DNA of 58,099 bases, taken from the IMG/VR virus record IMGVR_UViG_3300042691_010759. One strand, 5' to 3'. Numbering within the stretch: position 1 is the stretch's first letter; each line of letters begins with the position of its first letter. A program made the translations under genes and the position numbers. The notes beneath the pieces are model-generated. The model worked only from the letters and a program-made list of their open reading frames with translations, searched no databases and was not told the origin of the DNA. The DNA comes from an uncultured virus (IMG/VR IMGVR_UViG_3300042691_010759) (Duplodnaviria > Heunggongvirae > Uroviricota > Caudoviricetes). Positions 11,432 through 53,361 of this stretch are shown in pieces.

Positions 11432-11434
11432 GTC

Positions 11435-17725: not shown

Positions 17726-17726
17726 A

Positions 17727-20849: not shown

Positions 20850-20887
20850 ATCATTCCTATATAATAAATATACTAAATTTTTTTGAC

Positions 20888-31491: not shown

Positions 31492-31500
31492 ATAATATAC
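31492..31500 (-). promoter_or_regulatory. GTATATTAT putative phage promoter box
   Basis: The same 9-mer recurs in intergenic gaps at 34855, 39996 and 45468. This copy lies downstream of a terminator. Confidence 0.55.
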
Positions 31501-31561: not shown

Positions 31562-31596
31562 TAAAGTAAAAGCCCTGAACTATACAATTCAGGGCT
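31562..31596 (-). terminator. Rho-independent terminator
   Basis: Minus strand AGCCCTGAA-TTGTATAG-TTCAGGGCT followed by TTTACTTT. Confidence 0.85.
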
Positions 31597-31637
31597 CTCT
31601 TGTCAGTCACAGTAAACCAACAAACTATGACATATTT
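31562..31637 (-). ncRNA. Candidate 3'-UTR-derived small RNA with anti-(AAACCAACAA) seed loop
   Basis: Hairpin GTCATAGT-[TTGTTGGTTT]-ACTGTGAC (31631-31606) followed by a terminator. The loop is the reverse complement of a motif at five start codons. Confidence 0.5.
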
Positions 31638-32600
31638 TTAGCAGACATTGTCTATAATTACTAATCCCGGATCTCCCGCACTAACACTAGCAAGTATTAC
31701 GCAATTTGCAATAACTACATTAGCAGCTCCTGCTTCAATAACTTCTCTCCAAAGTACTATGGGAGTAGGAGTAGCTGTTTCAGAATTTGCTCCATTACAG
31801 GTTGTATAATATAAACTGATATCATCACCAGTAGGATTGCTAACTATTAATTGAGCACAAGGCTGACAATTACAAGATTCTTTACCAGGAAAGAGTGGTG
31901 TTACCGTACCTACTCCTGTTACAAATGGATCTGGTACAGAAGTAGCACATATTACTACAAGTTCTCCTACTGCTAGCGGTGGCCTAAATACTGAACCAGG
32001 AGGCGATGGATTACCGTCATTATTAGTACCATCACAAGCACCATACAAAAGAGAACAAGTATCAAGAATAGCTGTCAAGTCTGCATTAATACCACCTACT
32101 GTATTAATTGTAAGAGTAGGCGGAACAGAGTAAGTAAAACCATTATTACCTGGTAGTGGTACTACTGTAAGAATTGCTCCTAAACCATCTACATTAGAAA
32201 TTTGCCAAATTACATCGGTTCCATTAGCAGTAATTGTTTCCCCTATAAGGTATCCTGAACCAGGAACATCAATTGAAATTTGAGCTACACTAGTTTCATC
32301 ACAATTTATTTGATATGGTAAACAAGGATCCGCTTGTTCTGGAATTAGAATTGTAAATTGAGATGCCGCATCCGGAAAACCATCTCCATTACTGTCTACA
32401 GGATCTGAGCATTGTGCCAATACATAACCTTGATATAAAGCTCCCTCACAAAAATTAGTAGGTACTGTGATAAGAAGTGTGTTTACTCCAACAGTACAGT
32501 TTACGGTTTGGCATGTAAATGTAGCCGGTCCAGGTTGTAGTCTATAACATACATCGTGTGGTCCCGCCCATCCTGCTGTCCATGAAATTTGTATATCCAT
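31638..32600 (-). CDS. Cys-rich beta-structured virion/fibre protein (320 aa)
   Basis: ORF track; FN3-like N-terminus; PGSGY..G...GAIL.V....GF.Y..PPT.TI..GG fibre-type repeat; many Cys. Confidence 0.55.
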   Translation of the reverse strand: MDIQISWTAGWAGPHDVCYRLQPGPATFTCQTVNCTVGVNTLLITVPTNFCEGALYQGYVLAQCSDPVDSNGDGFPDAASQFTILIPEQADPCLPYQINCDETSVAQISIDVPGSGYLIGETITANGTDVIWQISNVDGLGAILTVVPLPGNNGFTYSVPPTLTINTVGGINADLTAILDTCSLLYGACDGTNNDGNPSPPGSVFRPPLAVGELVVICATSVPDPFVTGVGTVTPLFPGKESCNCQPCAQLIVSNPTGDDISLYYTTCNGANSETATPTPIVLWREVIEAGAANVVIANCVILASVSAGDPGLVIIDNVC

Positions 32601-34854: not shown

Positions 34855-34863
34855 ATAATATAC
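34855..34863 (-). promoter_or_regulatory. GTATATTAT putative phage promoter box
   Basis: Recurrent 9-mer in a 22-nt intergenic gap, only 4 nt from the ATG. Confidence 0.45.
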
Positions 34864-37841: not shown

Positions 37842-37970
37842 TTATTTTTTTACAGTAACAAGCTTGGCATTATATGCCGCAACACAATTTGCGCAACATT
37901 CTTTGCCATCTTTTGCTACTCGTTTTTTACATCCACAACTTAAAGTTGATCCGCAGTTTGAACATTTCAT
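37842..37970 (-). CDS. Small Cys-rich (zinc-finger/metallothionein-like) protein, 42 aa
   Basis: Not in the ORF track: MKCSNCGSTLSCGCKKRVAKDGKECCANCVAAYNAKLVTVKK*. Fills the gap and is preceded by the AAACCAACAA motif. Confidence 0.75.
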   Translation of the reverse strand: MKCSNCGSTLSCGCKKRVAKDGKECCANCVAAYNAKLVTVKK

Positions 37971-37989
37971 ATTTGTTGGTTTTTAATTG

Positions 37990-38538
37990 TTAATGACAAG
38001 TTTTACAATCAAATTTACTAAGAAGTTTCATAGCATAGTTGTATAATTCCATTCCTTTTTTTGGTTCATGGCAAAATTCAACTTTTGCTTTAGCAGCTTC
38101 TAAATATGATTTAATCTTTGCTAAATCACGCATCTTCTTATCTATCTCAGCTGTTGGTTCACAAGCTGCAATATCTAATTCGCATAATGCTTCTTTATAG
38201 CAAGTTAGCGCTTTAGTGATCCGGAGATGGTTATATTCCACATATACTAAATTGTTTGGGGCCACGCTATACTTAATGATATAAATACCGTCTGGTAAAT
38301 TTTGTAAAGACGTTCCGCAGTCAACAGTTTGTATATCTAAATCACATGCAGATAGATTTAGAATAAAGTTTTGTTCTATTCCATCAAACTGAATTGCATA
38401 ATTGAACCCAGGTAATGTTATTTCCAATATGGGACAATCATATGGAACAGTTGGACTATAAACGCTAGTATCAACTAACTTTAGTACGCAACTATTCATT
38501 GTGTCCGGTGCTTCTACGCTTAAAAAATGTTGAGCCAT
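37990..38538 (-). CDS. Putative tail hub / fibre-attachment protein (182 aa)
   Basis: L.LVDTS.Y...LEITLPGF...LPDGIY.IKYSVAP motif followed by a helical C-terminus; crAss synteny. Confidence 0.55.
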   Translation of the reverse strand: MAQHFLSVEAPDTMNSCVLKLVDTSVYSPTVPYDCPILEITLPGFNYAIQFDGIEQNFILNLSACDLDIQTVDCGTSLQNLPDGIYIIKYSVAPNNLVYVEYNHLRITKALTCYKEALCELDIAACEPTAEIDKKMRDLAKIKSYLEAAKAKVEFCHEPKKGMELYNYAMKLLSKFDCKTCH

Positions 38539-38550
38539 ACTCCTAAGATA

Positions 38551-38592
38551 AAAAAAAGGAGAGAAGAGTTTTCACTCCACTCTCCTTTTTTT
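38551..38592 (-). terminator. Rho-independent terminator (potentially bidirectional)
   Basis: aaaaaaaggagag...gagt-tttc-actc...ctctccttttttt inverted repeat downstream of the 448-aa gene. Confidence 0.85.
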
Positions 38593-38614
38593 AGTTTAAC
38601 AATGGTTATTATTA

Positions 38615-39961
38615 TTACGGTGCCGGTACAAGTGCCGCAATATCAAATACACAAGCTGTTGGTGTTAGAATCTCAACTTCTTCGCAATCTGTATTACAAG
38701 CAGCAAATAGGTTTGTGAAATAAGTTTCTAACGTTACAGAATCTGGTGTAACAATATCCAACAAGTACTGATCGTTATCAAATGTTCCAGAAGGATTATT
38801 GAAACGTGGTACAGAATGCAACAAGAACACACGGTCATACATTGCAGTTCTATTAACTACATTCCAAATATCTGTACCTTGAGTAATCTCACGGATACGA
38901 AGATCAGAATGCATAAAGTTTTGCAAGTAAGATTCATGAAGAATTACATCGCGTGCTACTGTCTCACCAAGACCTTGTGCTTGAATTCCAGGACAAGTCT
39001 CAACTACACACAATCCTTCAAATGTACACGGATCACCATTCAAATCAACTTCAGAAGCATAAATTTGAATTGGCTCAAGTCCATAGTAATCTGTAGGACA
39101 GAAAGTACAATCGTTGAATTGAGTATCAACATATGCACCAATCAAAATCAAACCTGCAGAAGTTACAGTTGGAGGAATGTTAGCCCAAATCTGGTTAACC
39201 GGTAATCCTAGTTCAGCTGCTACAGTAGCATCTTGAGCATAAGCAACACCATCAACAACAACTACTGGACGTACAAAATCCTTAAGATAAGGATTACCAG
39301 CATCAGAAGCTGCATTATAGTTTGTTGTAGTTACAGGTAAACCTGCAATTTGCTGAGCAAAAGACAAGTAAACAGTAGCTGGATCTACTGGAGTTGGATT
39401 GTCCGGATCATCACAACATCCTGTATAAACTCCAAGAGTTTGATATAAGTTGTGATTAGCAAAACGCAAAGCTGCCGTACCTTTGATATCAATTCTTAGG
39501 TAGTACGTTTCTTCACAGATAAACTCCTTATTACATTCAAGACCGTTATCCGGAGTACCACCAATTTGAAGAACCGCTGCAGAAGCCATTCCTGCCTTTT
39601 GAACCCAGGCTTTACGTAAGTACTTAGGATTGATTTCCTTAGACTTGTTTGATGCTTGGTATCCACCATGAAAAGGTCCCTGCTTGTCCTTAATCTTAAT
39701 AGCTGCACTAGCTACATAGAAAGGACAACATTCTGGAGATTCTGTAAGAATAGGAAGAGACAAATCTTTATTTGCTCCTTTTGCTCCAAAGATACCTGTA
39801 GTACCAGGTCCCAAAAGATAAGCAGCGCTAGTGTTCTTCAGTTCACTTACATGAACACCCGCTGTAGTCAAAATTCCGTTAACCGTTGATGCACTTGGGG
39901 CAATAGTGTCTGCCTTTGTTGCGATAAACGTTTTACGGAACGCGTGATTAAAGTAACTCAT
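38615..39961 (-). CDS. Abundant structural protein, probably auxiliary capsid protein (448 aa)
   Basis: Has its own promoter-like box and terminator, suggesting high expression; position matches the crAss auxiliary capsid gene; C.ETYYLRIDIKG motif. Confidence 0.55.
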   Translation of the reverse strand: MSYFNHAFRKTFIATKADTIAPSASTVNGILTTAGVHVSELKNTSAAYLLGPGTTGIFGAKGANKDLSLPILTESPECCPFYVASAAIKIKDKQGPFHGGYQASNKSKEINPKYLRKAWVQKAGMASAAVLQIGGTPDNGLECNKEFICEETYYLRIDIKGTAALRFANHNLYQTLGVYTGCCDDPDNPTPVDPATVYLSFAQQIAGLPVTTTNYNAASDAGNPYLKDFVRPVVVVDGVAYAQDATVAAELGLPVNQIWANIPPTVTSAGLILIGAYVDTQFNDCTFCPTDYYGLEPIQIYASEVDLNGDPCTFEGLCVVETCPGIQAQGLGETVARDVILHESYLQNFMHSDLRIREITQGTDIWNVVNRTAMYDRVFLLHSVPRFNNPSGTFDNDQYLLDIVTPDSVTLETYFTNLFAACNTDCEEVEILTPTACVFDIAALVPAP

Positions 39962-39995
39962 TTTTCTTTTTTTTTAATTATACAAACATTACACT

Positions 39996-40032
39996 ATAAT
40001 ATACACATTTTCTTTTACAAATAAAAGAAAAT
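39996..40032 (-). promoter_or_regulatory. GTATATTAT box (39996-40004) preceded by an 11-bp inverted repeat (40007-40032)
   Basis: attttctttta-caaa-taaaagaaaat perfect inverted repeat next to the recurrent 9-mer. Confidence 0.55.
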
Positions 40033-40041
40033 TGCAAATTT

Positions 40042-40746
40042 TTAATTATTTGATTCAACTTGAGAAGATGCTGTTTGTTGCTGATTAAATGATTCAATAT
40101 CACCAGCTAGAATTTTGGCAGCTTCATCAATGAATAATTCAACAATATCATCCTTGAATTCACACTCAACATTCACAGTAGATAGAACTTGAGTATAAGG
40201 ATCTACACAACCCTGAATTTCAATACGTGTAGGCTGTCTATAATATGAAAGACTAGCGGTATCAATATCAAATTCATTATTTGTATAGATTCTTACCTTA
40301 TTTCCTTTGAGAGTACAAAAGGTTTCTCCCCAGGATAAACTAGGTTTTTTAATCTCATCTCTTAGTAACTCATCTACATTTGCTTCTTCAGCAAGATAAA
40401 TTACCATTCTTTTTGGCTTGTCACAACATTCTGTACCAGCTTTGCTACTAAGTCTTTTCCATTCAAAGTAGTTAGCCGGTAAGTCATTTGACTCAAAATA
40501 GAGATCCCTCTTTTGCAAAGGGATCTCTAATTCAGTCAGAAGAATTTGTAAATCATCAATACGGCGCTTAGATTGCTCATCTCCAGTCTGCTTAATATTC
40601 ATACCGTGAAGATTTCTACGACACCACGCAACTTGTCCTTTATTGAACGCTTCAACAATTTGCCAGCACTCAATATTATCATAATCGCTTGAGGCTAGTT
40701 TATTTAGTCTCTGCTGAATCTTAAGTTGGATAGTTGCGTTATTCAT
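40042..40746 (-). CDS. Head-tail ring protein (R3-like, 234 aa)
   Basis: LNKLAS......I...FNKGQ...EQSKRRIDDLQ.L...Y.R.P..I...CEF....E..IDEA pattern typical of crAss ring proteins. Confidence 0.7.
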   Translation of the reverse strand: MNNATIQLKIQQRLNKLASSDYDNIECWQIVEAFNKGQVAWCRRNLHGMNIKQTGDEQSKRRIDDLQILLTELEIPLQKRDLYFESNDLPANYFEWKRLSSKAGTECCDKPKRMVIYLAEEANVDELLRDEIKKPSLSWGETFCTLKGNKVRIYTNNEFDIDTASLSYYRQPTRIEIQGCVDPYTQVLSTVNVECEFKDDIVELFIDEAAKILAGDIESFNQQQTASSQVESNN

Positions 40747-40764
40747 TAGATGATCACTTTAAGA

Positions 40765-41130
40765 TTACTTAAAACGAATATTATTAAGAAGAGTGTTACG
40801 CATAGCTCCACCTTTCTTATATCCTTCACCCATTTGATTTAGCTCATTAATTGTATTTTGATTTGCCGTAGCTGTTTGACCAAGTTTTTGGTTAGTATAG
40901 GCATTGGCTGCATTTAATTGCATTTGATACAAATCTTGAGCTCTTTGTTCAATAGGATTTCTAGCTACATTATTAACACCAAACATTTCCTCATAAGGTG
41001 TACCACTATTAATAGCAGTTAATATCTTACCAGCCTTTTTATTAAGGCGGTTTTCTTCTCGCACCATACGGTTGTTAGCCATATTTTTACGCATATTTCC
41101 AAATATGCCACCATCATTGTACTTTTTCAT
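40765..41130 (-). CDS. Hypothetical protein bounded by YxxGG motifs (121 aa)
   Basis: ORF track; begins MKKYNDGG and ends ...GYKKGGAMRNTLLNNIRFK. Confidence 0.7.
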   Translation of the reverse strand: MKKYNDGGIFGNMRKNMANNRMVREENRLNKKAGKILTAINSGTPYEEMFGVNNVARNPIEQRAQDLYQMQLNAANAYTNQKLGQTATANQNTINELNQMGEGYKKGGAMRNTLLNNIRFK

Positions 41131-41148
41131 AACTCAAAAGTTTACTAA

Positions 41149-41262
41149 TTAACACGCGCCTTTTTTCATACCGCCCTTTTTCATCATAGGAACTGGCTTT
41201 TCCATCATCTTTTTAGATCCTGCTTTCTTAACAGCAGTCTTCTTTGCTATTGTTTTTTTCAT
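41149..41262 (-). CDS. Small Lys/Met-rich peptide (37 aa, MKKTIAKKTAVKKAGSKKMMEKPVPMMKKGGMKKGAC)
   Basis: Start re-assigned to ATG 41262, 10 nt after the upstream stop, avoiding the overlap in the track ORF. Confidence 0.65.
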   Translation of the reverse strand: MKKTIAKKTAVKKAGSKKMMEKPVPMMKKGGMKKGAC

Positions 41263-41272
41263 ATCACTTGTT

Positions 41273-42409
41273 TTATTTGTTCCAATATTCTTCTTCAATA
41301 TCTTTAAGTAGACGGATAAGAACATCCTCATTTAGAGGATTCTTTAAATATTGTACTACATCAGATACGTTACGGCCTAACATAGTAGATGTAGGATTGT
41401 AATACAACATTCCATCTGCTTTAAGACTGATTATTCTATAAAAAGATGCATCTTTTACAAGAGCTCTTAATTTTAGAGTTTCCATATCTAAACGTACTAT
41501 CTCAATGAATCTTTCAGCAGCTTTAGCTGGTGAAGCTTCTGATCCATTACCGGCGATGTATTCATCCATAAGATCATACAATACATCTAGCGGTGTTGAA
41601 ACAGTGTATCTGGAACCTGTGCCATCTATTACCTTTGTTACATAAAGTAGTTTCTTAGGATTCTTCTTATAAAGAGAATCTAATTCACCAATAGCTTCAT
41701 TCTTAAGTTTCTTGAAAGTTGTTCTAGAAGAAACTGTAAATGTTTCTTTATCAAGGAAGAACTTTGGTGGCTTAATCTTAGTTATGGCATCGTCATAGCT
41801 CTTAGCTATAAGATCAAATCCTCCAGCTTCAATAGCCATAAATTTAATTAAATCATAAGCGTCCTCAAGAGGATCAAAAAATACAGGTTCGTTTCCACAA
41901 CGGATTGTAATTTTGCTCCAAAATAAATGATTATTGGGTTTCAATAATTGAACTTTATCCCAAAACGCTTCGTCATCAATTTTGATAACATTACTGGCAA
42001 GTTGTTTTTCTAAAAAAGAAACAACCATTCTTATGTTTTTTATTACAGCTTCTCTAGTTTCAGATTCTAATCTCTGAACTTCTGGCGCAAATTCATCAAG
42101 TCCTGTAATATATCTTATCACTCCATTTTTTTCTAGGGCCGCAATCTGTTCTTCATGATACGTACCTGGAAAAAGAGCAAAGCCGTAATCTTCTAATCCC
42201 ATGTTTTCTTGTTGAGGATTTACATAAGGCTTGATAGAAATTTTACCTACCTTCTTAAACATGTCTTCAATTTTAGGAGTCTTCTTAGTAGAAGTTTCTA
42301 CCATAATTTCTGGTACATTCGGTTTAAGAATAGTAGCTTCTGGAGATCCTAATACTTCAGCAGTATCTCCTTCAATAAATACAGATTCTCTTTTTGTTGT
42401 TCTTGACAT
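41273..42409 (-). CDS. Conserved crAss-type protein downstream of MCP (378 aa), function unknown
   Basis: ORF track; synteny; C-terminal LG.N..DVV.YLKNP.N motif. Confidence 0.65.
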   Translation of the reverse strand: MSRTTKRESVFIEGDTAEVLGSPEATILKPNVPEIMVETSTKKTPKIEDMFKKVGKISIKPYVNPQQENMGLEDYGFALFPGTYHEEQIAALEKNGVIRYITGLDEFAPEVQRLESETREAVIKNIRMVVSFLEKQLASNVIKIDDEAFWDKVQLLKPNNHLFWSKITIRCGNEPVFFDPLEDAYDLIKFMAIEAGGFDLIAKSYDDAITKIKPPKFFLDKETFTVSSRTTFKKLKNEAIGELDSLYKKNPKKLLYVTKVIDGTGSRYTVSTPLDVLYDLMDEYIAGNGSEASPAKAAERFIEIVRLDMETLKLRALVKDASFYRIISLKADGMLYYNPTSTMLGRNVSDVVQYLKNPLNEDVLIRLLKDIEEEYWNK

Positions 42410-42410
42410 A

Positions 42411-42473
42411 ACTATTTATTTGTTGGTTTAATAGTGCCTGCCGGTGTGCGAAGTCCGGTAACGCGTTCAGGCA
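42411..42473 (-). promoter_or_regulatory. Structured leader: GC-rich stem plus hairpin presenting AAACCAACAA
   Basis: TGCCTG...CAGGCA outer stem (42473-42435) with internal CCGG/CCGG, then ACTATT-[AAACCAACAAATA]-AATAGT just before the ATG. Confidence 0.45.
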
Positions 42474-42512
42474 AAAAAGAAAAAGGGAGGAGAGGTGGAC
42501 CTCCCTTTTTCT
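42474..42512 (-). terminator. Rho-independent terminator after the major capsid gene
   Basis: agaaaaagggagg / cctccctttttct inverted repeat with a U-tract on the minus strand. Confidence 0.85.
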
Positions 42513-42519
42513 GAATTTA

Positions 42520-44145
42520 TTAGAATGATCCTCCAGTAATTGGGTTTCTCATAACAATCTTAAGGACTTTAGTAGGATCCTTAACCCAAATTGCAGGCAT
42601 CATTTGTGTCATGTATACACGGTATCCGTTAAACTGACCTGATGACTGGAATCCTTGGCTACGTCCCATATAATCCATAGTACCATTTTGATACCACCAC
42701 TTCAATTGGTTATCCCAAGCCAACTTCAACATGTAAATGTTGTCATTGTTGTTATCAGTGATATCAAAGATAATAAATGAATAAGAAGAAAGCGCAAATC
42801 CATCAATTACCGGGTTCTCAATGTCATTTGTATGAACATTGTCAAACGCAGGATTAATCACAAACTGAACGTTAGCCAAGAATGGAATAACGTAGCTTGT
42901 AAATGCGTATCCAAATCCAAGATTCATTCCTGTACCAGATACTGCATTGATACCTGACTTATCACCGTTAACCTGGATGAAGTTATCAGATGCTGCTTCA
43001 CGCTTAATTGCTTCATTCACCATACGCATACCACCCATACCTGTTTGTACGATGATTTGACGTTTTGGATCCGGACCAGTAAATTCTACGCGTCCGTTGT
43101 AGAAATTGTAAAGCTCAGTACGGAACAATTCAAGATCAAAGCTTGATTTGTTATATACACGCTTGAATGAGTTATCAAGCTGCTTCCAAAGTCCAACAGA
43201 AAGACGTAAATCATCTGGACCATCCTGACGAACTCTACCTCCGTGTCCCCACATTAGGTAAGTCTCAATATCCGTTGCAACCTTAGTAAGGTGTGCCGCT
43301 TCAAGAGAAGTAAGGAATGTACGAGAAAGATCACCATTTGCCATAGCTTTCTTAACGTAATCTTTACCCATAGTTCCTACCATCTGCTCAATAGTAGATA
43401 CAGAAGGATCCATGTTTTTGTCAAAATTACGCCAGATTTCAGTTACAGGAATTGTACCATCAGCATTCAATCCTCCTTTAATCTGCATATCTGCACGAGA
43501 AGAAATTGAATAATGTACGTGAGCTTCTGCACCACCTACATAGTTATAGAACTCACGGTATCCAGATCTTGTAGTGATGTCAGAGAAACGCTCTCCATAT
43601 TCTCCACGCGCAGAACCTTTACGGAAGAATTTAGTACCAGACTTCAAGAACTTAATGTCCATGTACTTATAGCTATCGTTGTTCACGATACGTACAGTGT
43701 AAATAAATCCGTCTCCAACAGGAAGAATGTCATCTTCTGCAGAAACAATTAATTCACATCCGTTGTACTTGTCATAAGTAATGATGTCTCCATGTCCAAA
43801 TTCACGCTTATTAAGCTTGATTCGGAATGTAGTTTCATCAAGTCCTGGTTGCTGGCTTGGTTCAACATTCTCAACAATATACGGAAGATCCTGTGAAATA
43901 GGCGTTTGCCATTTCCACTCTCCACGGATATTGTCAACTTCGATAATGTTCTTACCGCCAAAGCTTGACATCTGATAAAGAGGCATTTCTACCTTCTGAG
44001 TCATAGCCCAGATATCAACTGGTCCCATGTCAGTAGGCTCTGCATCCTTCAGCATGTTTGCCAAGTGGTAAGAGTCAACATGTGAGCTTGCCTGATACGA
44101 AGTGTCTCTCAGAAACAAGCCATTGTTAAAAGTTGGTGTACTCAT
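42520..44145 (-). CDS. Major capsid protein (crAss-type HK97 fold, 541 aa)
   Basis: Size; order portal-scaffold-MCP; followed by a strong terminator; E.YLMWG.G...GLW.QL, TG.GG and IWVKDPT+ motifs. Confidence 0.85.
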   Translation of the reverse strand: MSTPTFNNGLFLRDTSYQASSHVDSYHLANMLKDAEPTDMGPVDIWAMTQKVEMPLYQMSSFGGKNIIEVDNIRGEWKWQTPISQDLPYIVENVEPSQQPGLDETTFRIKLNKREFGHGDIITYDKYNGCELIVSAEDDILPVGDGFIYTVRIVNNDSYKYMDIKFLKSGTKFFRKGSARGEYGERFSDITTRSGYREFYNYVGGAEAHVHYSISSRADMQIKGGLNADGTIPVTEIWRNFDKNMDPSVSTIEQMVGTMGKDYVKKAMANGDLSRTFLTSLEAAHLTKVATDIETYLMWGHGGRVRQDGPDDLRLSVGLWKQLDNSFKRVYNKSSFDLELFRTELYNFYNGRVEFTGPDPKRQIIVQTGMGGMRMVNEAIKREAASDNFIQVNGDKSGINAVSGTGMNLGFGYAFTSYVIPFLANVQFVINPAFDNVHTNDIENPVIDGFALSSYSFIIFDITDNNNDNIYMLKLAWDNQLKWWYQNGTMDYMGRSQGFQSSGQFNGYRVYMTQMMPAIWVKDPTKVLKIVMRNPITGGSF

Positions 44146-44183
44146 TTGTGTGGGTATTTAATTATTAATTGTTTACTTATTTA

Positions 44184-45437
44184 TTACCTTCCGAAGAAGT
44201 TTCTTTGTTTTCTTGGAATACCCGGTCTAGAAACAGTTCTTCTAGTATCAGTATCTTCCTCTTCTTGCTGTGCTATAGTTGTTTTAGTAGCTTGTTCAGT
44301 TTTCAAAGTTCTCATAATTTTAGCATTAGTTTCCTTATCTTGAACTGATCTTACTTTTTCTTTGTAGCCATCTGGATCAGCAAGTAACCAGAGAGCTTCC
44401 GCAATCAAATCATGTCTTGGTTCTACCCATTGGTATTTTTCCAATAAGTGACCTAACATATTTGTTTGCCTTCCATTAATTGATGGATAATTTGATTGAA
44501 CAAGACCTGCATAAAGCATATTTTGTGTCTTGTTATCTAAATCAATACCATTCAATTTAGATGGTTCTAATGCAGAATAAACACTCTCAATATACATTTG
44601 AGATTGTTCTCTACGCATAGCAGATTGCTTTTCTTGTTCAGCAATTCTTTGATTCACCATTTGTTGTTGCATTGCATCCAACTTTGGTTTAAATTGTTTT
44701 GCTTTCTTTTCAAGATCTCCGCGATCCTCATAGCTATAGATCTCTTCTTCAATTTCTTCAGGAGTACCAAATCCGGTAGCCTGTAAATAAGCTCTAATAG
44801 CATATTTTTGACCTGCTTCAGATGCAATGTCTAATTCATATACTTCACGTGATGCAGCCAATGCTGAAAACATTCCTTTTAAATCATCTCCACCATTAGC
44901 AAGGTAATCATACGCTTGTTGCATTTCTGGGGGCAATGACTGGAAAAATTGTTGAGCCACCTGATTTCCCATCTTATTTTGATAGTTCTCAAAATTAGCT
45001 TCAAGTAATTCCTCAAAATCCTCAGCTGAATAGTCTTCTAGTTTTTTGTCATCTTCAAAAGGAAATATGATACCTTTATCAATCAGCTTTTTAGTAGCAC
45101 TAATTAATGCTGCTGGTCTACCTCCTTTATTTTTAGAATCTGTATCAACATCAAAATCAGATCCTGATGGAGGAAGTAAAGGATTATAATCATCATCATC
45201 CTCTTGCTCATCCTTAGTAGAAGTACTTTGCGTAGTATCCGCATTTACCGTTGCCTCTTTTACAAAAGGCTTGTCAAGGAACGTTGTGTCAACCGATAAA
45301 GGACTAAATACGCTTTTCTTTTCCGGTTTATCTCCCTCATTAGGAAGCATTACATTGTCAGCTCCAATATTCAGAATGTCATCAATATTGATGTCTACTT
45401 CTTGAACATTAGTAACTTCTTTTTTTTCATCACTCAT
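44184..45437 (-). CDS. Acidic putative scaffolding/assembly protein (417 aa)
   Basis: Highly acidic N-terminus, coiled-coil core and basic C-terminus; lies between portal and MCP. Confidence 0.65.
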   Translation of the reverse strand: MSDEKKEVTNVQEVDINIDDILNIGADNVMLPNEGDKPEKKSVFSPLSVDTTFLDKPFVKEATVNADTTQSTSTKDEQEDDDDYNPLLPPSGSDFDVDTDSKNKGGRPAALISATKKLIDKGIIFPFEDDKKLEDYSAEDFEELLEANFENYQNKMGNQVAQQFFQSLPPEMQQAYDYLANGGDDLKGMFSALAASREVYELDIASEAGQKYAIRAYLQATGFGTPEEIEEEIYSYEDRGDLEKKAKQFKPKLDAMQQQMVNQRIAEQEKQSAMRREQSQMYIESVYSALEPSKLNGIDLDNKTQNMLYAGLVQSNYPSINGRQTNMLGHLLEKYQWVEPRHDLIAEALWLLADPDGYKEKVRSVQDKETNAKIMRTLKTEQATKTTIAQQEEEDTDTRRTVSRPGIPRKQRNFFGR

Positions 45438-45476
45438 AATTGTTGGTTTTTTTATGACTGTACATTAATAATATAC
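45434..45476 (-). promoter_or_regulatory. GTATATTAT box (45468-45476) and AUG-sequestering hairpin with AAACCAACAA loop
   Basis: TCATAA-[AAAAACCAACAA]-TTATGA, where the 3' arm contains the start codon. Confidence 0.55.
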
Positions 45477-45549
45477 GCAATTTTAATTAAAATAAATCTG
45501 AAATGTTTGAAGAAATACGTGTATTCAAAAATATTTTACCATTATATGG

Positions 45550-48339
45550 CTACGATTTTTTACCACCTTCTTTCTTTGATTCTTTTTCTGTTATCTTTAA
45601 GTCAAATTGGTTTTTATTTTCTCTAGCAATTTGAAGATCTTTTTCTTTCATTTCTCTTTGAAGAGCCAGTTCTTCTCTTTTAATATTCATTTTCTCAGAT
45701 TGCTGATTTCTATTATCATTTGCTTTCTGAGATTGCAGATCCATTACATGCTGATATTGTTCAGTTTTCTTAATTTTCTCAACGCTATCTATGTAGTCCG
45801 ACTGAAGATTTTGATTAATATCTTGCATAGAACCATAACCCGCAGATTTAATTTCTGCAACCATAAGATCAACTCTTCTATCTTTTTCTTTCTCTCTTGC
45901 CTCATGTTCAAGTGCCATAGCTCTTTCTTTTTGAGAAGCTTCCAGAGCGGCCCGTTGCATTTCTTCTGCTTGCTCTCTTTCATCCATACGCATGCGTATA
46001 GCCTTATCTTCAATACCTTTAAGTGTACTGTTTAATGTACTCATTGAGTCAGCCTGGATAAGTTGTCCTAAATCATAAATAGATGCTCCAGTAGTATTAT
46101 TGCCTGCTGCTAAACGCTTCATCTGGTCAAGGATTGCTCTATGATTAGCTTTTGTACTGCAATAAACATTTATGTCACGTAACAAAAGATCTTCTCCATT
46201 TATCTCAAAGTTTACTCTTTCATCCATACTTGTCATATGTTGAAGACGTATAGATGGTTTTGTAGAGTGATACCATTGAGCTAGATCAGTTCTCATTTCA
46301 TGAACTCTAGGCATTAGATGGTCAGAGTGCTCAACAAAATGCATTTCAGTTTGAGCATAAGATCCTATTTGAGTTTGCTCAACTTCTGTAGCTGTTACTG
46401 TTTGTCCAACAGGTTGCCCCATACGTTGTGGATTAACTCCTACAACTTCAAATGCTTGCATCTTAAAGTAATTTGCAAGTTGAATACGCGACATTAATCT
46501 ATTAGTCTGAGAAAGATCTAATTGTTGGAAGTGACCAAAATTTAAAGCATTCTCTGTATTTGTGATTGAAGTATCTAAAGGAAGTATCTGAAAATCCTTC
46601 ATTGCTACATATGCTTTAGCATAATTACCCTTACCCCAATCCTCACCTAGTGAATGACGCGGTAAAGTATTTTGATCAAGCATTACTACAGTTCCTATTT
46701 CATCTACAAGGATATCGGCAATTTGATTATTAACTATGTTGTACCCTACCTGGAAAGGTTTCATGGAGTCAACTAATGATGTTGAACGCGTATTACGATC
46801 TGAAAAAACTCTACCCTCTACAGGAAGTTTACAACCATAAAGAGTATTATCTCCTTTGAATTGAAATTTCAAAGGTTTCATTCTATTTTGGTTAATACCT
46901 AGATATATAGGATTTACACCACCTGAGTTTTCAATACCCAAGAATGTAGGCTGATTAGGACCTATCTTTACTCCTCCCCAAACATGATTAATCCATACCC
47001 ATTCAATATGCTCACCAAAAACTAGATTTGAAGCTGTCTTATTCTTAATTAGTTGATTATTGTAAATAGGTTTATCTGATACTTCGTAATCTTCACTTAC
47101 AATCTGAGTAGTTACTTCACCAGCTTCATCAATCTTTGTAAGATGACCTATTCTACGTTGAGATTTCCAATAAGCCGTAGTAACACGTAGCATTGTAGGT
47201 CCTTCATTGGTTACGTAGTCTTCAGATTCTTGAAGAACCCACTCTACAATATCATTCCCATTATACACAAAATTATCACGCATAGAAGTGAACTGACGGT
47301 ATGCTAAAGATGGAGATCCCGTATTCCAAGCATGTGATTTAGTAGCATCATAAAAAGTACCATCATTTTGATATCCTCCTATAGGATATCCTGCAGCACC
47401 TATAGGATAATTTTGTTGTAATGATTCTAACTGCTCTTCATTCATAAGCCATCCGTACTTATCAATAACAGCCGGAACAGACATCATTTCAATTTTGCCT
47501 ACATTGTTTCCTTGAGATATATATCTAGTATCTGGAGATTTGTGATAGAATGTAAGAACCGGATTCCACAACTCTACGTCATAATCATCTTCAAGCATAT
47601 TAAAGTGCCAAAATTCTCTATCAGCAATTAGTTTATCCCGGAAACCTCTTTCTTCAAGCTCATCCATTCTAAACCTTTCTTCATCAATTAGATGTTGTTT
47701 TGAAGCCCACTTTTCAGCTAATACTTCATAATCTTTACTATAAAAGTCTTGTATTTCAGGAAGAGTTTTGAGATTTTCAGGTTGTAATTTTTCTTGCATC
47801 ATTTGGGCTCCTTCTTCACTTTCAGGATCCATACCCATATCAATCATCTGATTAAGAAGTTTTGCTTCTGCATATTTTACAAGAACATTCTCAATATCTT
47901 GTCTTTTCTTCTCAATGATTTCATTATGCGTGTATTCATCAACTGCTCTAAAACTTACCCTACGATTTCTTTTAGCAAATTCACTTACAAGTGTATTTAC
48001 AACATTTGGTATAATAGGATAGAACTTTAACTCCAATGCCTCATACTCATCATCTGATGCTAGCTGATGAAGTAAATCATTCATCTCATTATTTTCAGCA
48101 GGGATGTAATCTGTTTTATCAATGATACCTTGAGCAAGTTTATAGTTCTTCATCAATCTGCGCGCATTTCTGCGTAATTGTTTTAAACCATTCCACTCTA
48201 GCCAGTCCATATTCCAGGCCGCCCACTGCTCATCTTTTTCTACCGTAGGTAAAAATTGCAATGGTTGAGAAACGCTCCACAATCTATTGTGTTTAGCCTT
48301 CGCTCCATTCTTTAAATCTAAAGCGTTAAGTATTTTCAT
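45550..48339 (-). CDS. Portal protein (929 aa)
   Basis: Follows TerL; FYPIIPNVVNTLV.E..KR, W.W.N.VW.G.KIG, KLP..G and SLVD.MKP.Q..YNI..NQ motifs of crAss portals; C-terminal coiled-coil barrel. Confidence 0.9.
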   Translation of the reverse strand: MKILNALDLKNGAKAKHNRLWSVSQPLQFLPTVEKDEQWAAWNMDWLEWNGLKQLRRNARRLMKNYKLAQGIIDKTDYIPAENNEMNDLLHQLASDDEYEALELKFYPIIPNVVNTLVSEFAKRNRRVSFRAVDEYTHNEIIEKKRQDIENVLVKYAEAKLLNQMIDMGMDPESEEGAQMMQEKLQPENLKTLPEIQDFYSKDYEVLAEKWASKQHLIDEERFRMDELEERGFRDKLIADREFWHFNMLEDDYDVELWNPVLTFYHKSPDTRYISQGNNVGKIEMMSVPAVIDKYGWLMNEEQLESLQQNYPIGAAGYPIGGYQNDGTFYDATKSHAWNTGSPSLAYRQFTSMRDNFVYNGNDIVEWVLQESEDYVTNEGPTMLRVTTAYWKSQRRIGHLTKIDEAGEVTTQIVSEDYEVSDKPIYNNQLIKNKTASNLVFGEHIEWVWINHVWGGVKIGPNQPTFLGIENSGGVNPIYLGINQNRMKPLKFQFKGDNTLYGCKLPVEGRVFSDRNTRSTSLVDSMKPFQVGYNIVNNQIADILVDEIGTVVMLDQNTLPRHSLGEDWGKGNYAKAYVAMKDFQILPLDTSITNTENALNFGHFQQLDLSQTNRLMSRIQLANYFKMQAFEVVGVNPQRMGQPVGQTVTATEVEQTQIGSYAQTEMHFVEHSDHLMPRVHEMRTDLAQWYHSTKPSIRLQHMTSMDERVNFEINGEDLLLRDINVYCSTKANHRAILDQMKRLAAGNNTTGASIYDLGQLIQADSMSTLNSTLKGIEDKAIRMRMDEREQAEEMQRAALEASQKERAMALEHEAREKEKDRRVDLMVAEIKSAGYGSMQDINQNLQSDYIDSVEKIKKTEQYQHVMDLQSQKANDNRNQQSEKMNIKREELALQREMKEKDLQIARENKNQFDLKITEKESKKEGGKKS

Positions 48340-50552
48340 TTTCTACCAATGTTTTTAAAAGGCAATCTGGGTTTGTTTCCATTAGCCATATTAGATCTAT
48401 TTCTTCCAATATTACGGAAAGCATCCCTATTTAATTTATACAAATCTTGGGACTTTTCCAAGTTTTTATCCAACTCATTTTCAATACGGATAACTTTTGG
48501 TATTGAAGACTGCCGAACTTTAGCAAAAGCAACTAGTGCTGCTAGAGCTACTAAGCGGTCAACGTTAACACCTGGTCTGTAGGCACTCATCTCTTTAAGA
48601 GCCATAATATCAGGTATTCTTTGAATACCATAATGCTTCTTCAAAATTAGTCCTTCTGGATTAACATCTTCATCTATTACTTCTTTTAACCACTCAATTA
48701 AATAGCTCAAGAGGTGATTCTTAAATAACGTACCTACGTTTCTCCATCCGTATTCTTGATATACAGTCTTATTAGCTTGAGCTTCTTTTAGGAAGATCAT
48801 TTGGTTCTTAGGTATTAAATACTTTTGTTTTCTCTCAGCTATCATATACTGAATAAACAAGGATATGTTATTTTCAACAAGAGTCCAGGCATTATACCAT
48901 TCAATAATAAGTCTTAAACGTTTGTGTGTATTATTGATATCATCATAGCGGCCGCACCATGCTGCTACAATTTTGTCACCTTCAATGAAAGTTTTGATAC
49001 CATTCTCGTCTTTGCGAGTTACTTCAACAGGATTTTTATAAACATAGATAGAACATAGTGATTCTGAAGTTGTAGTCTTACCTTCACCCACGGGATCTAT
49101 TGAAGCAATATATTGAGCAAATGCTGGATCTTTATCAGGTCTTTCAAAAACTACAATTGCTCCTTCTTTATCTTCTTCATTTAGCTTAATAGGAAATGTA
49201 GAAATAGGAATTTTATTTGTTTTCTTTACTATAATCTCACCGTTTAGTCCTTCATCTAAATCAAGAATTTCATAAGGATAATCTTTATTTTGTATTCTCC
49301 TCATTTGATCTTCAACAAGATTTGATGGAAAAATTGATTCTTCTCTATAAGCAAAAGCTTCTGTGATATTTCTAGGATGCTGAGAGATCCTTAGCTGATA
49401 TTTTTCTGGAGTTAATTTTTTCTTCCATTCGGCAAACTTTTGATCTAAAGCTTCAAGAGCTTCCTGTACGCGAGAATTACCAAAATCATCAATATAAGGA
49501 GGCATTCCCCATTGTTCTGGAATAAATAAACCACTTTTTCCAATAGTGCCTTTTTCATCAATTAAATCAGTTTCTACAGCGTAGATGTCATTATCATCAG
49601 GATGGAGAGTCATTGCCTTTAATGGTTCACAATCTGTAAGTTCTCCTACAGATCCTGCAATAATAAACATCCCTGTAGTAATATCACCAGCTTGCATGGC
49701 AGGACGAATGAACTCAAATGTTTTATCAGCTCTAGGAGCAATACCACCTTCTTCATAGAAGAATAGGGTGCATGGTCCACCGACTCCTTTTGTATCACTT
49801 TGTTCAAAAGACATTCCTTGAATCATTCCTTTAAGTCCTACTTCTTTTTTTCTACCATTTTGTGTGACTTCAATTTTCTGTTGCCATTCTAAAACTTTAC
49901 CTGGATTCATTGGACGATACCATGCTGTGTTTCCGTTAAGAAAAGCACGGTATTCATCTAAAAATTTCCAAGATCCGGATAAGTTAATAAAGTCTTTAAG
50001 AGATGCCCCAATTTTTAAGATTGCTCCTGGATCAAACCAAATTCTATTTATCATTTTACCCATATGAAAATAAGAAGATGCAATCTGACGTTTCTTAGTT
50101 ATACTGGAATGTTTATAATGAATTTCAGCAAGTTCTTCATATAAAGCCATATGTAACTGAACATCCCAAATTTGTGGGAAATCAAATTTCTTTTTGATTT
50201 TATCATAGATTGGTAAGAAGTTTATCCAGAAATAATAATCTCTAGGTAGAAACCAAGTCTTGCCGTTATTTTTAAAAATAGCACCATTTACAGATTTTTC
50301 TTTTTCAAAATCCCAATACGTATAAAAGTCTTTAGACTTAAATGGAGACATACAATAAACATTACCTTGACTCCTAAATCGCCTAGCTTGCTCATTAAAT
50401 AAATAGGCTGTTTCATCAAAATTATATTTACCAGGCTCCTTAAAAGTACTTTTTACAAAGTCTCTATACTCTTGAATATCCGTAAAGACTGTAGTAGTCC
50501 ATACTCCATTTTCATAAGTAGGTATTTCTTTATTAAAATCTAGGAATTCCAT
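48336..50552 (-). CDS. terL: Terminase large subunit (738 aa)
   Basis: Walker A-like KKRQIASS, Walker B FFYEEGG, coupling motif GSVG, and RNase H-fold ASIDPV...LVENN...NVDRL. Confidence 0.92.
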   Translation of the reverse strand: MEFLDFNKEIPTYENGVWTTTVFTDIQEYRDFVKSTFKEPGKYNFDETAYLFNEQARRFRSQGNVYCMSPFKSKDFYTYWDFEKEKSVNGAIFKNNGKTWFLPRDYYFWINFLPIYDKIKKKFDFPQIWDVQLHMALYEELAEIHYKHSSITKKRQIASSYFHMGKMINRIWFDPGAILKIGASLKDFINLSGSWKFLDEYRAFLNGNTAWYRPMNPGKVLEWQQKIEVTQNGRKKEVGLKGMIQGMSFEQSDTKGVGGPCTLFFYEEGGIAPRADKTFEFIRPAMQAGDITTGMFIIAGSVGELTDCEPLKAMTLHPDDNDIYAVETDLIDEKGTIGKSGLFIPEQWGMPPYIDDFGNSRVQEALEALDQKFAEWKKKLTPEKYQLRISQHPRNITEAFAYREESIFPSNLVEDQMRRIQNKDYPYEILDLDEGLNGEIIVKKTNKIPISTFPIKLNEEDKEGAIVVFERPDKDPAFAQYIASIDPVGEGKTTTSESLCSIYVYKNPVEVTRKDENGIKTFIEGDKIVAAWCGRYDDINNTHKRLRLIIEWYNAWTLVENNISLFIQYMIAERKQKYLIPKNQMIFLKEAQANKTVYQEYGWRNVGTLFKNHLLSYLIEWLKEVIDEDVNPEGLILKKHYGIQRIPDIMALKEMSAYRPGVNVDRLVALAALVAFAKVRQSSIPKVIRIENELDKNLEKSQDLYKLNRDAFRNIGRNRSNMANGNKPRLPFKNIGRK

Positions 50553-50554
50553 AT

Positions 50555-51067
50555 TTACATCTGATCATATCCTAATTGCTGACCTCCTCTCACGTGAGAT
50601 TCTTGTTCTGCTGCTAAATCTTTAGCTACTCCCTTATATGATTGACGAATTGCATCAAATTCTTTTGCAACACGTATAAGAGAATTAATATTCCCATCCC
50701 GGCCTGCTGTTACACTTGTTGTTTCCATATAGTTTGCTAAATTATCAAGCATTGTTGTAATAGCGTTATATGCCCTAACAGTGGGTGTTTCATACATTAG
50801 GTAAGCTTTCATTAAAGCATCCGTAATTTCTTCTTCATCCAATGAAAAATTAATATCAAGATCCCTTATGATTATATCTTCTCTAAGATCTCTAGGTATA
50901 TTAAAAAAAGGATTTTCTTCACTAGGACATGCCATATAAAAAACATAAGCATAAATCTTTAAAGCATCCTCTGGAAACCTTTCTTGTATTACACGAAGCC
51001 AGTTAATCATTTGGCAATGCTCCGTAGGTTTAACTACGTTATTCTCTATTTCAAATAGTTTTATCAT
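50555..51067 (-). CDS. Conserved helical protein upstream of TerL (possible terminase small subunit)
   Basis: ORF track; position; C-terminal VRGG motif. Function inferred from position only. Confidence 0.5.
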   Translation of the reverse strand: MIKLFEIENNVVKPTEHCQMINWLRVIQERFPEDALKIYAYVFYMACPSEENPFFNIPRDLREDIIIRDLDINFSLDEEEITDALMKAYLMYETPTVRAYNAITTMLDNLANYMETTSVTAGRDGNINSLIRVAKEFDAIRQSYKGVAKDLAAEQESHVRGGQQLGYDQM

Positions 51068-51891
51068 TTGTCGTAAGCTTCAGGATGTAATTTAAGATAT
51101 TTAATGATATTATTCACTTCATTCTTTAAATAAGGAACGTCATAAGGAATAACATCTTTTACAATAGGATCTCCCATTGGATCATAAGCAACAATAGGAT
51201 ATCCAAAATCATCTTCTCCTTCAACTTCAAATATGATATGATGAATTTGCATTTTACCAGGCTGAAGTGAGTGATTATGTTTTAATGTAATATACATATA
51301 CAAACTCATTTGTATTGCATAATGATTGAAGTTACAATCCTCTAAATGATTTAGAGGACCGGTCATCATATTTGTAATACCTTCCCAGCTTGTATATCCT
51401 TTAAGCTTAATTTCTTTGTTAGTCTTGTAGTCATAGATATTTACTTTGTTACCTACTACTTCAATCCTATCAGCTTGTCCGCAGATTCTTGCAGACTTTA
51501 AATAAACAAGGTGTTCCGGATATATACCAGGCGTTAGATTTTGATCTGGTGAAAGTTTAACACCATCCTGCTCAATAGGTCTAATAATTGGAAGATTTAT
51601 ACCTTCTCTCTGAACAGTATCACAAGCTATCAATTCTTTTTCTCTTTGGTCGTGATACCAACTTCCTAAATCTACTGCTCTTTTATTTTCTGTATCCCAG
51701 GTATCTATGATGTCATCTATAGACATACCATACCACTTAGATTTTTTATTAGCTGCGGATTTTTGTGCTTGTGCAAGTTTATCAAATTTAGGTTTGAACA
51801 AACCTATAACACTTGTCGCACTAAGCCATTTTTTATCAGGATCATTTATACTTTGATACTTATGATTCTGAGCTGTGAATTGTAGTTCCAT
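51064..51891 (-). CDS. PD-(D/E)XK nuclease (RecB/Cas4-like exonuclease)
   Basis: SATSVI, GSWYH, PEHLVY...ICGQADRI...IYDYKTNK...Y.IQMSLY. Start taken at MELQF (51891); the track ORF extends to 51948. Confidence 0.85.
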   Translation of the reverse strand: MELQFTAQNHKYQSINDPDKKWLSATSVIGLFKPKFDKLAQAQKSAANKKSKWYGMSIDDIIDTWDTENKRAVDLGSWYHDQREKELIACDTVQREGINLPIIRPIEQDGVKLSPDQNLTPGIYPEHLVYLKSARICGQADRIEVVGNKVNIYDYKTNKEIKLKGYTSWEGITNMMTGPLNHLEDCNFNHYAIQMSLYMYITLKHNHSLQPGKMQIHHIIFEVEGEDDFGYPIVAYDPMGDPIVKDVIPYDVPYLKNEVNNIIKYLKLHPEAYDK

Positions 51892-52201
51892 CTTGATCTT
51901 GAGATTTGAATTGGTCATTGAGTTGGTCTTCTTCTTCTGGAGTAACAAATGCTTTCCATTTTTGAATATCGCATTCTGCGGATAGAGATCTAGTCTTAAA
52001 CTTTAAACTACATCCACATAAATTGCAACACGGCCCGGTTCCTATAACCACGCACTTATCTCCTTTATGTTCACACTTATCACAAATATCATTACGTTCT
52101 TTTGCAATAAGTTCTATAAATTCATCTTTGGCGATATAATTAGTTATGCCATCAATTATTTTATAGCGTTCTTTCCAAATTTTAGATAACCTACTTGCCA
52201 T
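51860..52201 (-). CDS. Zn-finger-like Cys-rich protein (113 aa)
   Basis: R..IC..C...C......CC..CGC.L..K..S....C...KW. Confidence 0.7.
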   Translation of the reverse strand: MASRLSKIWKERYKIIDGITNYIAKDEFIELIAKERNDICDKCEHKGDKCVVIGTGPCCNLCGCSLKFKTRSLSAECDIQKWKAFVTPEEEDQLNDQFKSQDQDGTTIHSSES

Positions 52202-52556
52202 ATTTTTGTTTTAAAAAGTTTGTTCTTCTTTCTTGATCTTCACTTATAAGTTTTTGCAAATTTCTTACTCTTTCTAGGCGCATCTCTAAATCCTTTTTGA
52301 TAGCCATTTGATTAAAAGTTTCTGGTTGCAAAATGTTTAAATGATTTTCATACTTGTTAATTAACTTTGGTAATTCAATGGGTTTAGCTTTAAATAAACC
52401 AAGGTTTTCCACTTGAATGTAGTGGCAGTCTAAATTACTTAATGCTTTTCTTAGAGTTGAATAATAAAATCCCACAACGTCTTCAATAAGTTGTTGATCA
52501 CATCCTAGTTTTTCAGATGTAGGATATATGAAGTGTTTACTATTCTTGGGTAACAT
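52191..52556 (-). CDS. HU/IHF-like DNA-binding protein (121 aa)
   Basis: SEKLG....LIEDVV..YY..LRKAL......IQVENLGLFK matches the HU helix-helix-strand pattern. Confidence 0.6.
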   Translation of the reverse strand: MLPKNSKHFIYPTSEKLGCDQQLIEDVVGFYYSTLRKALSNLDCHYIQVENLGLFKAKPIELPKLINKYENHLNILQPETFNQMAIKKDLEMRLERVRNLQKLISEDQERRTNFLKQKYGK

Positions 52557-52905
52557 AAACCATTTTATAATCTAAAATAATATTACCTTTTGTTTGAATC
52601 TGTAAACCTTCATTGAGATTTATCTTCTTCTTACTACTACCGTCCTTTCTCACAAGCTTCATTTTTGAAGCTTTTGTGAGAAAGTTACGGACAGTTTGAG
52701 AGGTTTTAAATATATCTTCTTCTACTGCTGAGTTACAGAATTCAGATAAATCACATTCTCCATAAGCACCAAGTAATGTTAAACAACTTAACTCACTTGA
52801 ACTAAGCTGTAGATCATGCACAAAACAATACGTTAAAAGCTGATATTTAATAATATCTCTATAGCCCATACGTACTTTTTTGGTCACTAAATTAGCTTGT
52901 GCCAT
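52540..52905 (-). CDS. Putative winged-helix DNA-binding protein (121 aa)
   Basis: LS.SEL..L....SQTVRNFLTK.....LV.K...KI.LN pattern. Confidence 0.55.
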   Translation of the reverse strand: MAQANLVTKKVRMGYRDIIKYQLLTYCFVHDLQLSSSELSCLTLLGAYGECDLSEFCNSAVEEDIFKTSQTVRNFLTKASKMKLVRKDGSSKKKINLNEGLQIQTKGNIILDYKMVYVTQE

Positions 52906-52926
52906 AATTGTTGGTTTAAGTTTTGT

Positions 52927-53301
52927 TTAATCTGGAGTAGCTAATCTGCGAGATTTTTTTTCTGTTATCTCAGCTTCTTCTTTTACTACATGCATTTGTT
53001 CAGGATGCTGGGCTTGTTTCATGGCTTCTTCATGAGCTTTTTCATACTCAGCCCTTGCTTGCTCCATTGCCTGTTCCTGCTGTTCCATATGTGCAAATAA
53101 TTGAGCCGTTTTAGCTATTGCATTATAACGCTTAAACTTTGCTTCTTCTATTTCTGCAAGAAGTGTTTCGTACTGGGATTGGATTTTTAAGAAGCCTATT
53201 TCTTCTTTATAGTCTGCGACAATTTTACTTCGCATTTTTTTTACCTCTTCTGGAGATAATGCTTTTTCTTGAGGTGTTCCCTCTGCTTGTTGGTTTTCCA
53301 T
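52927..53301 (-). CDS. Hypothetical coiled-coil protein (124 aa)
   Basis: ORF track; E/Q/A/K-rich helical sequence. Confidence 0.75.
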   Translation of the reverse strand: MENQQAEGTPQEKALSPEEVKKMRSKIVADYKEEIGFLKIQSQYETLLAEIEEAKFKRYNAIAKTAQLFAHMEQQEQAMEQARAEYEKAHEEAMKQAQHPEQMHVVKEEAEITEKKSRRLATPD

Positions 53302-53305
53302 AATA

Positions 53306-53361
53306 AAACTTTCTATGTTATACTTAATAGCAAATATAACATAGAAAGTTTAAATATCAAA
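53306..53361 (-). promoter_or_regulatory. Bacteroidota-type sigma70 promoter embedded in a 17-bp perfect inverted repeat
   Basis: TTTG (53361-53358), N19, TATATTTG (53338-53331) fits the -33/-7 consensus TTTG...TAnnTTTG. IR arms at 53306-53322 and 53335-53351. Confidence 0.7.

Follow-up and report, generated by a model that had tools for sequence, protein, structure and literature searches.

A conserved start-site tag in a crAss-like phage, probably the target side of a phage antisense RNA regulon

The subject of this report is a short tag, AAACCAAC, found at the translation starts of a particular set of late genes in an uncultured freshwater phage (IMG/VR record IMGVR_UViG_3300042691_010759), together with a hairpin whose loop is complementary to it. 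We analysed a stretch of 58,099 nucleotides (hereafter the window), which forms the late arm of a phage record 120 kb long; the tagged late genes and the hairpin (31606..31631) lie on its minus, or late, strand. Our data lead us to think it probable that the tags are the sites at which a trans-acting antisense RNA of the phage represses translation: the RNA would be made as the 3′ end of a late mRNA, or as a piece cleaved from one, would pair with the tags in the cell, and would have a repressive effect there. The basis for this proposal is the tag itself, its gene specificity, selection upon it at the nucleotide level, a conserved fold of the hairpin on the late strand, and loop and tag changes that match each other in a distant lineage.

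The tag and the genes that carry it

In its exact 10-nt form, AAACCAACAA, the tag occurs seven times in the window against an expectation of 0.18 +/- 0.39 – none of 100 shuffles reached seven – while the excess vanishes once a mismatch is allowed (11 versus 7.6 expected). The five late-strand copies listed in the preliminary description (37973, 42420, 45440, 52908 and 53287) proved exact in every coordinate, and four of them stand in leaders: 37973..37982 is 2 nt before the ATG (37970) of a small cysteine-rich open reading frame (ORF), 42420..42429 is 10 nt before the ATG (42409) of the gene that follows the capsid gene, 45440..45449 is 2 nt before the ATG (45437) of the gene in the scaffold position and is the best-pairing leader of 129 in the genome, and 52908..52917 is 2 nt before the ATG (52905) of ORF 52540-52905. 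The fifth, 53287..53296, is not in a leader; it lies just inside its ORF, within codons 2-5 (E-N-Q-Q) of ORF 52927-53301. The two remaining exact copies are on the opposite strand, one being the hairpin loop (31614-31623) and the other 18271-18280, where the exact loop word stands on the late strand inside the coding sequence (CDS) 17727-20849 and for which no role was found. Outside the window there is an eighth copy, in front of an early gene (genome C1, ~13698). Also beyond the window, early or middle genes on the plus strand at C1 13712, 15502 and 39617 have AAACCAAC or AAACCAA in their leaders; the family of the 39617 gene is tagged in 4 of 11 records.

Gene specificity was surveyed over 80 capsid loci plus the window, scoring AACCAA within 30 nt of the ATG in unique leaders, with starts from a simple first-ATG caller of which a few are wrong (for example the scaffold starts of G002 and G067, whose rows were omitted from the scaffold rank summary). 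The word is present in 63/66 leaders of the gene before that of the major capsid protein (MCP), in 49/51 post-capsid leaders, and in the leaders of the small cysteine-rich ORF in 28/29 cases when orthologues are taken by cluster and 24/25 when taken by BLAST. It is absent from the leaders of MCP (0/58), portal (0/66) and TerL (0/67), and likewise from those of 40042 (0/39), 38615 (0/28) and 37990 (0/25). Shuffled leaders contain it in 5-13% of cases. With 12/35 leaders tagged, the family of ORF 52540 counts as a target in some members of the clade. In 13 whole records the same families come first (13/13, the post-capsid leader, then 11/13, 11/11 and 5/13), joined by scattered early genes, and some of the tagged genes there are on the opposite strand. 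Spacing from tag to ATG is variable, from 1 to 17 nt.

The tag is not equally common away from starts: across 80 overlapping sequences (79 loci plus the window) there are 150 copies of AAACCAAC in 39,866 leader nt versus 84 in 1,149,040 CDS nt. Where it does enter coding sequence, in the ORF 52927 family, the word itself is what is kept. AACCAA falls between -30 and +36 in 39/53 orthologues (31 coding only, 6 upstream only, 2 both); among the 14 others, read row by row, five have the word across the ATG and three look wrongly started. The coding tag is used in three frames (27, 5 and 1 cases), and N-Q is written AAC-CAA in 28/35 instances in this family versus 148/1017 (14.6%) elsewhere. Frames and codon bias together show selection on an RNA word, whichever side of the AUG the ORF 52927 tag occupies.

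The earlier view that the tag is no ordinary ribosome-binding site (RBS) stands. It is gene-specific and missing from MCP leaders; tagged leaders contain 1-2% G, and we find neither the purine richness of a Shine-Dalgarno (SD) site nor its generality among highly translated genes. A stricter pattern gave 55 matches in 61 Bacteroidota genomes versus 37 for its control, and the tag is therefore not a general host RBS. A pattern scan of GTDB returned nine matches, none a hairpin-terminator element and four at Bacteroidota start codons; four Bacteroidota records (L304, L307, L308, L310) carry AAACCAACAAA immediately before an ATG, so the phage loop could also reach some genes of hosts.

The anti-tag hairpin

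The hairpin has an 8-bp stem and the loop UUGUUGGUUU, at 31614-31623, and lies 6 nt past the stop codon of a variable late gene (31638..32600, minus strand), whose 3′ untranslated region (UTR) holds it. An intrinsic-terminator-like hairpin with a U tract (31562..31597, minus strand) follows immediately, and the two together fold with a z-score of -5.2. The hairpin is kept in 72/73 related records (relatives picked by protein homology), while the gene upstream of it varies; the distance from stop codon to loop has a median of 16 nt and is 9-26 nt in 65/70. The element is thus a conserved structure on one strand, placed between a stop codon and the intrinsic terminator in which it ends.

Its loop core, GUUGGU, is invariant in 64/64 copies. 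The late strand folds better than its complement in 61/63, with 82 G-U pairs versus 28, and an alignment of 29 copies shows 85% pairing in the stem and 18 two-sided changes, a result matched by 0/500 shuffles (a test that relatedness inflates) and compared with 27-56% for slid controls. RNAalifold did not recover the first stem from the first alignment. A corrected model (R2) gives one strong match in each of 11/12 related records plus the window, a single copy per record, with no hairpin found in G005 (86% complete). R2 scores the copies of a distant clade weakly (E 0.16, 0.35) or misses them; those copies are assigned by pattern and position, and in two of their number (G246 and G253) the first stem is not predicted although the loop pattern is at the same place. 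A second loop-like copy stands ~130 nt before the main element of G246 (L337, ~16041).

Beyond these relatives, no Rfam family, GcvB included, matches the hairpin (best E = 2, 20 bits against a cut-off of 76), no equivalent was seen in stretches of ~31-41 kb each of Fpv3, phi17:2, csAssE-Sib and bajarodcaudo virus 1, and R2 found the hairpin in 0/150 Bacteroidota genomes, a weak test with 32 candidates scored per genome and no positive control. The transcript that terminates with the hairpin would begin at the nearest upstream late-promoter-like box, 34855..34863 (minus strand). Only 7/61 records have a box of this type within 200 nt of the element; since none is kept nearby, the hairpin probably forms the 3′ terminus of a late mRNA or is cut from one.

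Pairing, co-variation and competing explanations

Co-folding with the hairpin yields a gain of -11 to -18.5 kcal/mol at the five tagged sites versus about -1.5 for MCP, portal and 40042, and four of the predicted duplexes in the window phage extend to the AUG: a conserved seed is complementary to several distant mRNAs at their translation starts. The MCP start, once taken for a looser variant of the site, drops out, its gain being -1.4 kcal/mol and none of the 58 MCP leaders carrying the word. Pairing of the tags with a candidate RNA at 31606-31631, which the preliminary description had offered as one of two options, gains support from conservation of the hairpin, its covarying stem, and co-variation between loop and leaders. 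The kissing of two loops, as it was there imagined, does not. The arms said to display the tag exist (TCATAA/TTATGA, 45452-45457/45434-45439; ACTATT/AATAGT, 42430-42435/42411-42416), but the hairpins they form at 45437 and 42409 are weak (-5.3 and -6.0 kcal/mol, equalled by 21 and 22 of 200 shuffles) and are not conserved: among relatives, a pair with p>0.5 closes around the motif in only 25/58 scaffold leaders, 19/62 post-capsid leaders and 24/51 leaders of the small gene, with mean minimum free energies of -1.4 to -2.7. Loop display of the tag is not a conserved feature, and the target side looks like an open A-rich strand.

Among near clades the core of tag and loop hardly varies. The informative case is distant: the isolate Lbo-JY46 (PP438436, L312), whose capsid protein is 28% identical to that of the window, has at the same place before a terminator the loop word with an altered 3′ flank, and its scaffold and post-capsid leaders, which flank the capsid gene, are without AACCAA. 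For pairing, its own element ranks these two leaders 1 and 2 of 168, compared with about 51 and 60 for 61 canonical elements, none of which (0/61) puts both in the top 5; shuffles placed both in the top 2 in 1/400. Nine contigs related to Lbo-JY46 mostly retain AACCAA in both leaders and the loop plus terminator in place, which indicates that the Lbo-JY46 line changed both. In its sister G246 one loop-flank base differs and the post-capsid leader carries the complement of that base. For the post-capsid leaders of the two phages, pairing with the own element is worth -16.9 and -14.7 kcal/mol versus -12.6 and -10.9 when the elements are swapped, and the own element ranks 1 of 70 in both. Lbo-JY46 was deposited as a Leptolyngbya cyanophage, yet its head module is crAss-like and its leaders are rich in A and free of SD sites; its host label may be wrong, and our literature search turned up no paper on it.

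A second box, CAGTCA (45455..45460, minus strand), is complementary to the 3′ arm and tail of the hairpin and represents a clade-restricted extension: GTCA is present in 17/20 scaffold leaders of one clade and 0/41 elsewhere, and a three-member subclade shows a matched C-to-U/G-to-A change between box and tail, a pattern in which kinship is a confounder.

How might such a regulon work? A late transcript is predicted to end in the hairpin, whose GUUGGUUU loop would pair in trans with the tag and likely keep ribosomes from loading. The CC of the tag is mostly at -11 to -8, and adenines at A-13/A-12 and A-6/A-3 promote initiation in F. johnsoniae, according to passages of PMC6847099; with the CC between these adenines, a duplex would cover every one. 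The variable spacing and the copies within coding sequence are easier to reconcile with occlusion than with positioning of ribosomes, and the terminator-like hairpins between most targets and the element, together with tagged genes on the other strand, argue for action in trans. As late transcripts accumulate, the RNA would lower output of the putative scaffold, the post-capsid protein, the cysteine-rich protein, and the winged-helix protein and its neighbour, leaving capsid, portal and terminase unaffected – a possible timer or stoichiometry control of assembly. A bolder version, which we think rather unlikely, sees here a lytic phage's own ribosome-site code, in which a phage RNA that reads a private tag at selected start codons would stand in for the anti-Shine-Dalgarno or form a translation-coupled switch clocking capsid assembly; in the latter form the hairpin would begin under the terminating ribosome and a second fold would hide the seed. 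Such a fold, from structure prediction, is possible and not clearly above chance: it beats its own shuffle median in 50/63 cases and all 20 shuffles in 4/63.

Several results weigh against a repressive antisense RNA. In the alternative fold, which makes up part of the ensemble, the seed is hidden (mean 0.46 paired). The loops of G248 and G249 changed without matching leaders, and in five of the nine distant phages (G247, G248, G249, G250, G254) the own loop is near the bottom rank for the post-capsid leader; over all records the advantage of the own element is small, with mean rank fractions of 0.38 for scaffold, 0.46 for post-capsid and 0.52 for MCP. Co-variation of tail and GTCA box was rejected as independent proof, the association (14/18) being that of one clade and the independent pairs 1:1, not significant. 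Many leaders have two tag copies, an arrangement that would also suit a dimeric protein. Finally, in one freshwater RNA run (X1) no contig covers 31202-31802, a gap that in contigs proves nothing; near-identical contigs from that run cover several late genes and sparsely cover 1-20000, give neither strand nor ends, and may include DNA carry-over.

The same RNA and tags could serve activation, the RNA recruiting or positioning ribosomes as a stand-in anti-SD, opening leader folds or stabilising mRNAs. Bacteroidota ribosomes do not read SD sequences (PMC7797042), the tag CC lies at the SD position, and two leaders in the window have weak folds over the AUG. We nevertheless hold activation to be unlikely: spacing ranges over 1 to 17 nt, 33/53 copies in one family are inside coding sequence, leader folds are not conserved, the duplexes predicted for the window phage extend across the AUG, and MCP, the most needed protein, is untagged. 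Proteins such as T4 RegA and CsrA work through translational operators, and the tag might be the operator of a RegA-like RNA-binding protein of phage or host, with the hairpin an opposite-strand decoy or unrelated. The double copies (at least two in 12/66 scaffold, 23/51 post-capsid and 7/25 small cysteine-rich leaders), the invariant CC, and an opposite-strand loop that would display the tag itself all suit such a protein; fold, G-U pairs and U tract all favour the late strand, however, in Lbo-JY46 and G246 the leaders departed from the consensus together with the loop of the same phage, and no candidate protein was identified. A same-strand reverse-complement loop with leader-matched changes would go unexplained, and we judge this reading, too, improbable.

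Pairing could instead occur in cis, the 3′ end being joined to the leaders of one long late transcript. The hairpin does end the gene block that holds the small cysteine-rich target, from which it is separated in L119 by one gene only; against this, terminator-like hairpins after MCP and 38615 separate it from other targets, two targets lie at a distance of 21 kb, and part of the tagged genes belong to the other strand, making cis action very unlikely. We give least credence to a generic unstructured A/C-rich enhancer with a loop complementary by chance. Enhancers rich in C and A exist (described in part of PMC3879156), and some Bacteroidota start codons carry the same word (the four of nine matches above); yet the tag is absent from equally A-rich MCP leaders, has 55 matches against 37 for its control in 61 Bacteroidota genomes, is selected inside coding sequence, and faces a loop invariant in 64/64. 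As sole explanation a generic enhancer is contradicted, although enhancer activity may coexist with the RNA model.

Setting, comparisons and significance

TerL (48336-50552), portal (45550-48339) and MCP (42520-44145; phrog_11589), which served as the untagged control, all lie on the minus strand, and a terminator-like hairpin (42488..42505, minus strand) follows MCP. The order TerL-portal-gene 77-MCP-gene 75, with homologous proteins, is that given for crAss-like phages in a figure legend of PMC7886860; the closest named capsid proteins are those of Fpv3, phi17:2 and csAssE-Sib, at 24-28% identity to the window MCP. By gene order and homologous proteins, the phage is crAss-like. The leaders are A-rich with little G and have adenine peaks at -13/-12, a signature of Bacteroidota in the relevant passages of PMC6847099, from which we infer a Bacteroidota host.

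The tagged gene between portal and MCP (44184..45437, minus strand, 417 aa), in the position of gene 77, has no confident family and is called a putative scaffold from its position alone. The post-capsid gene (41273..42409, minus strand, 378 aa), in the gene-75 position, has 2106 homologues, none named, no PDB match, and membership in unnamed viral clusters only. For the small cysteine-rich ORF (37842..37970, minus strand, 42 aa), conserved in relatives, no family was found; its own family spans 42-80 aa with CxxC, CxC and CCxxC motifs and is overlooked at a 60-aa cut-off. ORF 52540..52905 (minus strand, 121 aa) has a predicted winged-helix (FUR-like) fold, with an Atlas structure match to FUR at TM 0.57, making it a candidate late regulator. 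Its neighbour, ORF 52927..53301 (minus strand, 124 aa), is the one tagged within its coding start, and a long near-perfect A/T-rich inverted repeat (53301-53350, -22.4 kcal/mol) ends at its ATG.

An GTATATTA box at 45469-45476, ~33 nt before the scaffold ATG, resembles a late promoter; boxes of the TATAT[TA] type are present in 57/61 scaffold leaders versus 9/61 post-capsid and 3/61 portal leaders. The form GTATATTA(T/A) stands 10-45 nt before several late genes (45469-45476, ~39996-40004, 34855-34863, ~31492-31500 and ~20865-20873, all minus strand) and is likely the late promoter. Very large ORFs (1,000-2,100+ aa) without PHROG match run through 1-24196 and are probably virion cargo proteins; an alternative genetic code for the first 6 kb was ruled out by one long ORF that is open in the standard code.

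GcvB is a small RNA (sRNA) that depends on Hfq and has its own promoter. It shares with the proposed system one G/U-rich seed, many mRNAs, C/A-rich (ACA) start sites and the masking of enhancers, and differs as a chromosomal enterobacterial sRNA for amino-acid genes (PMC3879156). In the phage, by contrast, the seed would be the loop of a hairpin located in a 3′ UTR and directed at late genes of the phage itself, and there is no Rfam match. CpxQ, DapZ and SroC are base-pairing sRNAs derived from 3′ UTRs; as in these, the seed lies before an intrinsic terminator and right after a stop codon, with no promoter of its own evident, but the gene upstream of the hairpin is replaceable and the encoding phage is of lytic type. 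RNAIII and RsaE of staphylococci are loop-seeded multi-target RNAs that read the host SD; the phage hairpin, too, has an invariant loop on a covarying stem that matches translation starts, but what it matches is a tag private to the phage, in a lineage that does not use SD sites. In kissing pairs of the CopA/CopT type the target is also in a conserved loop, which the tag is not. Lambda aQ, DicF and Esr41, as treated in parts of PMC12197685, are likewise phage-encoded RNAs acting by pairing, yet they are cis-antisense or prophage RNAs on host genes, and none is there a regulon over its own assembly genes. The extended-SD autoregulation of bS21 in Bacteroidota (PMC7797042) resembles our case in gene-specific RNA pairing at a start site with natural covariation, and differs in its partner, 16S rRNA rather than a phage hairpin. 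A literature search at the level of result listings, together with six supplementary files of PMC10690425, turned up no account of such a phage regulon, and the relevant passages of the phage-sRNA review (PMC12197685), a Crassvirales review and the phi14:2 preprint describe nothing similar. By analogy, the system would work like GcvB-type enhancer masking from a 3′-UTR position, outside any Rfam family. We conclude that the tag is real and conserved, and that it most likely serves as the target in an antisense regulon run by the phage.

In the current picture, promoters and the strength of leaders set the late genes of phages. If true, an antisense regulon with several assembly genes as targets would be a new control layer in a very common phage group, and tag and hairpin persist between phages whose capsid proteins share only 28% identity. 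A direct test is possible, since the deposited isolate Lbo-JY46 carries a naturally re-coded version. If the claim holds, the tag would also offer an 8-nt orthogonal on/off handle on translation for Bacteroidota, which do not use Shine-Dalgarno pairing.

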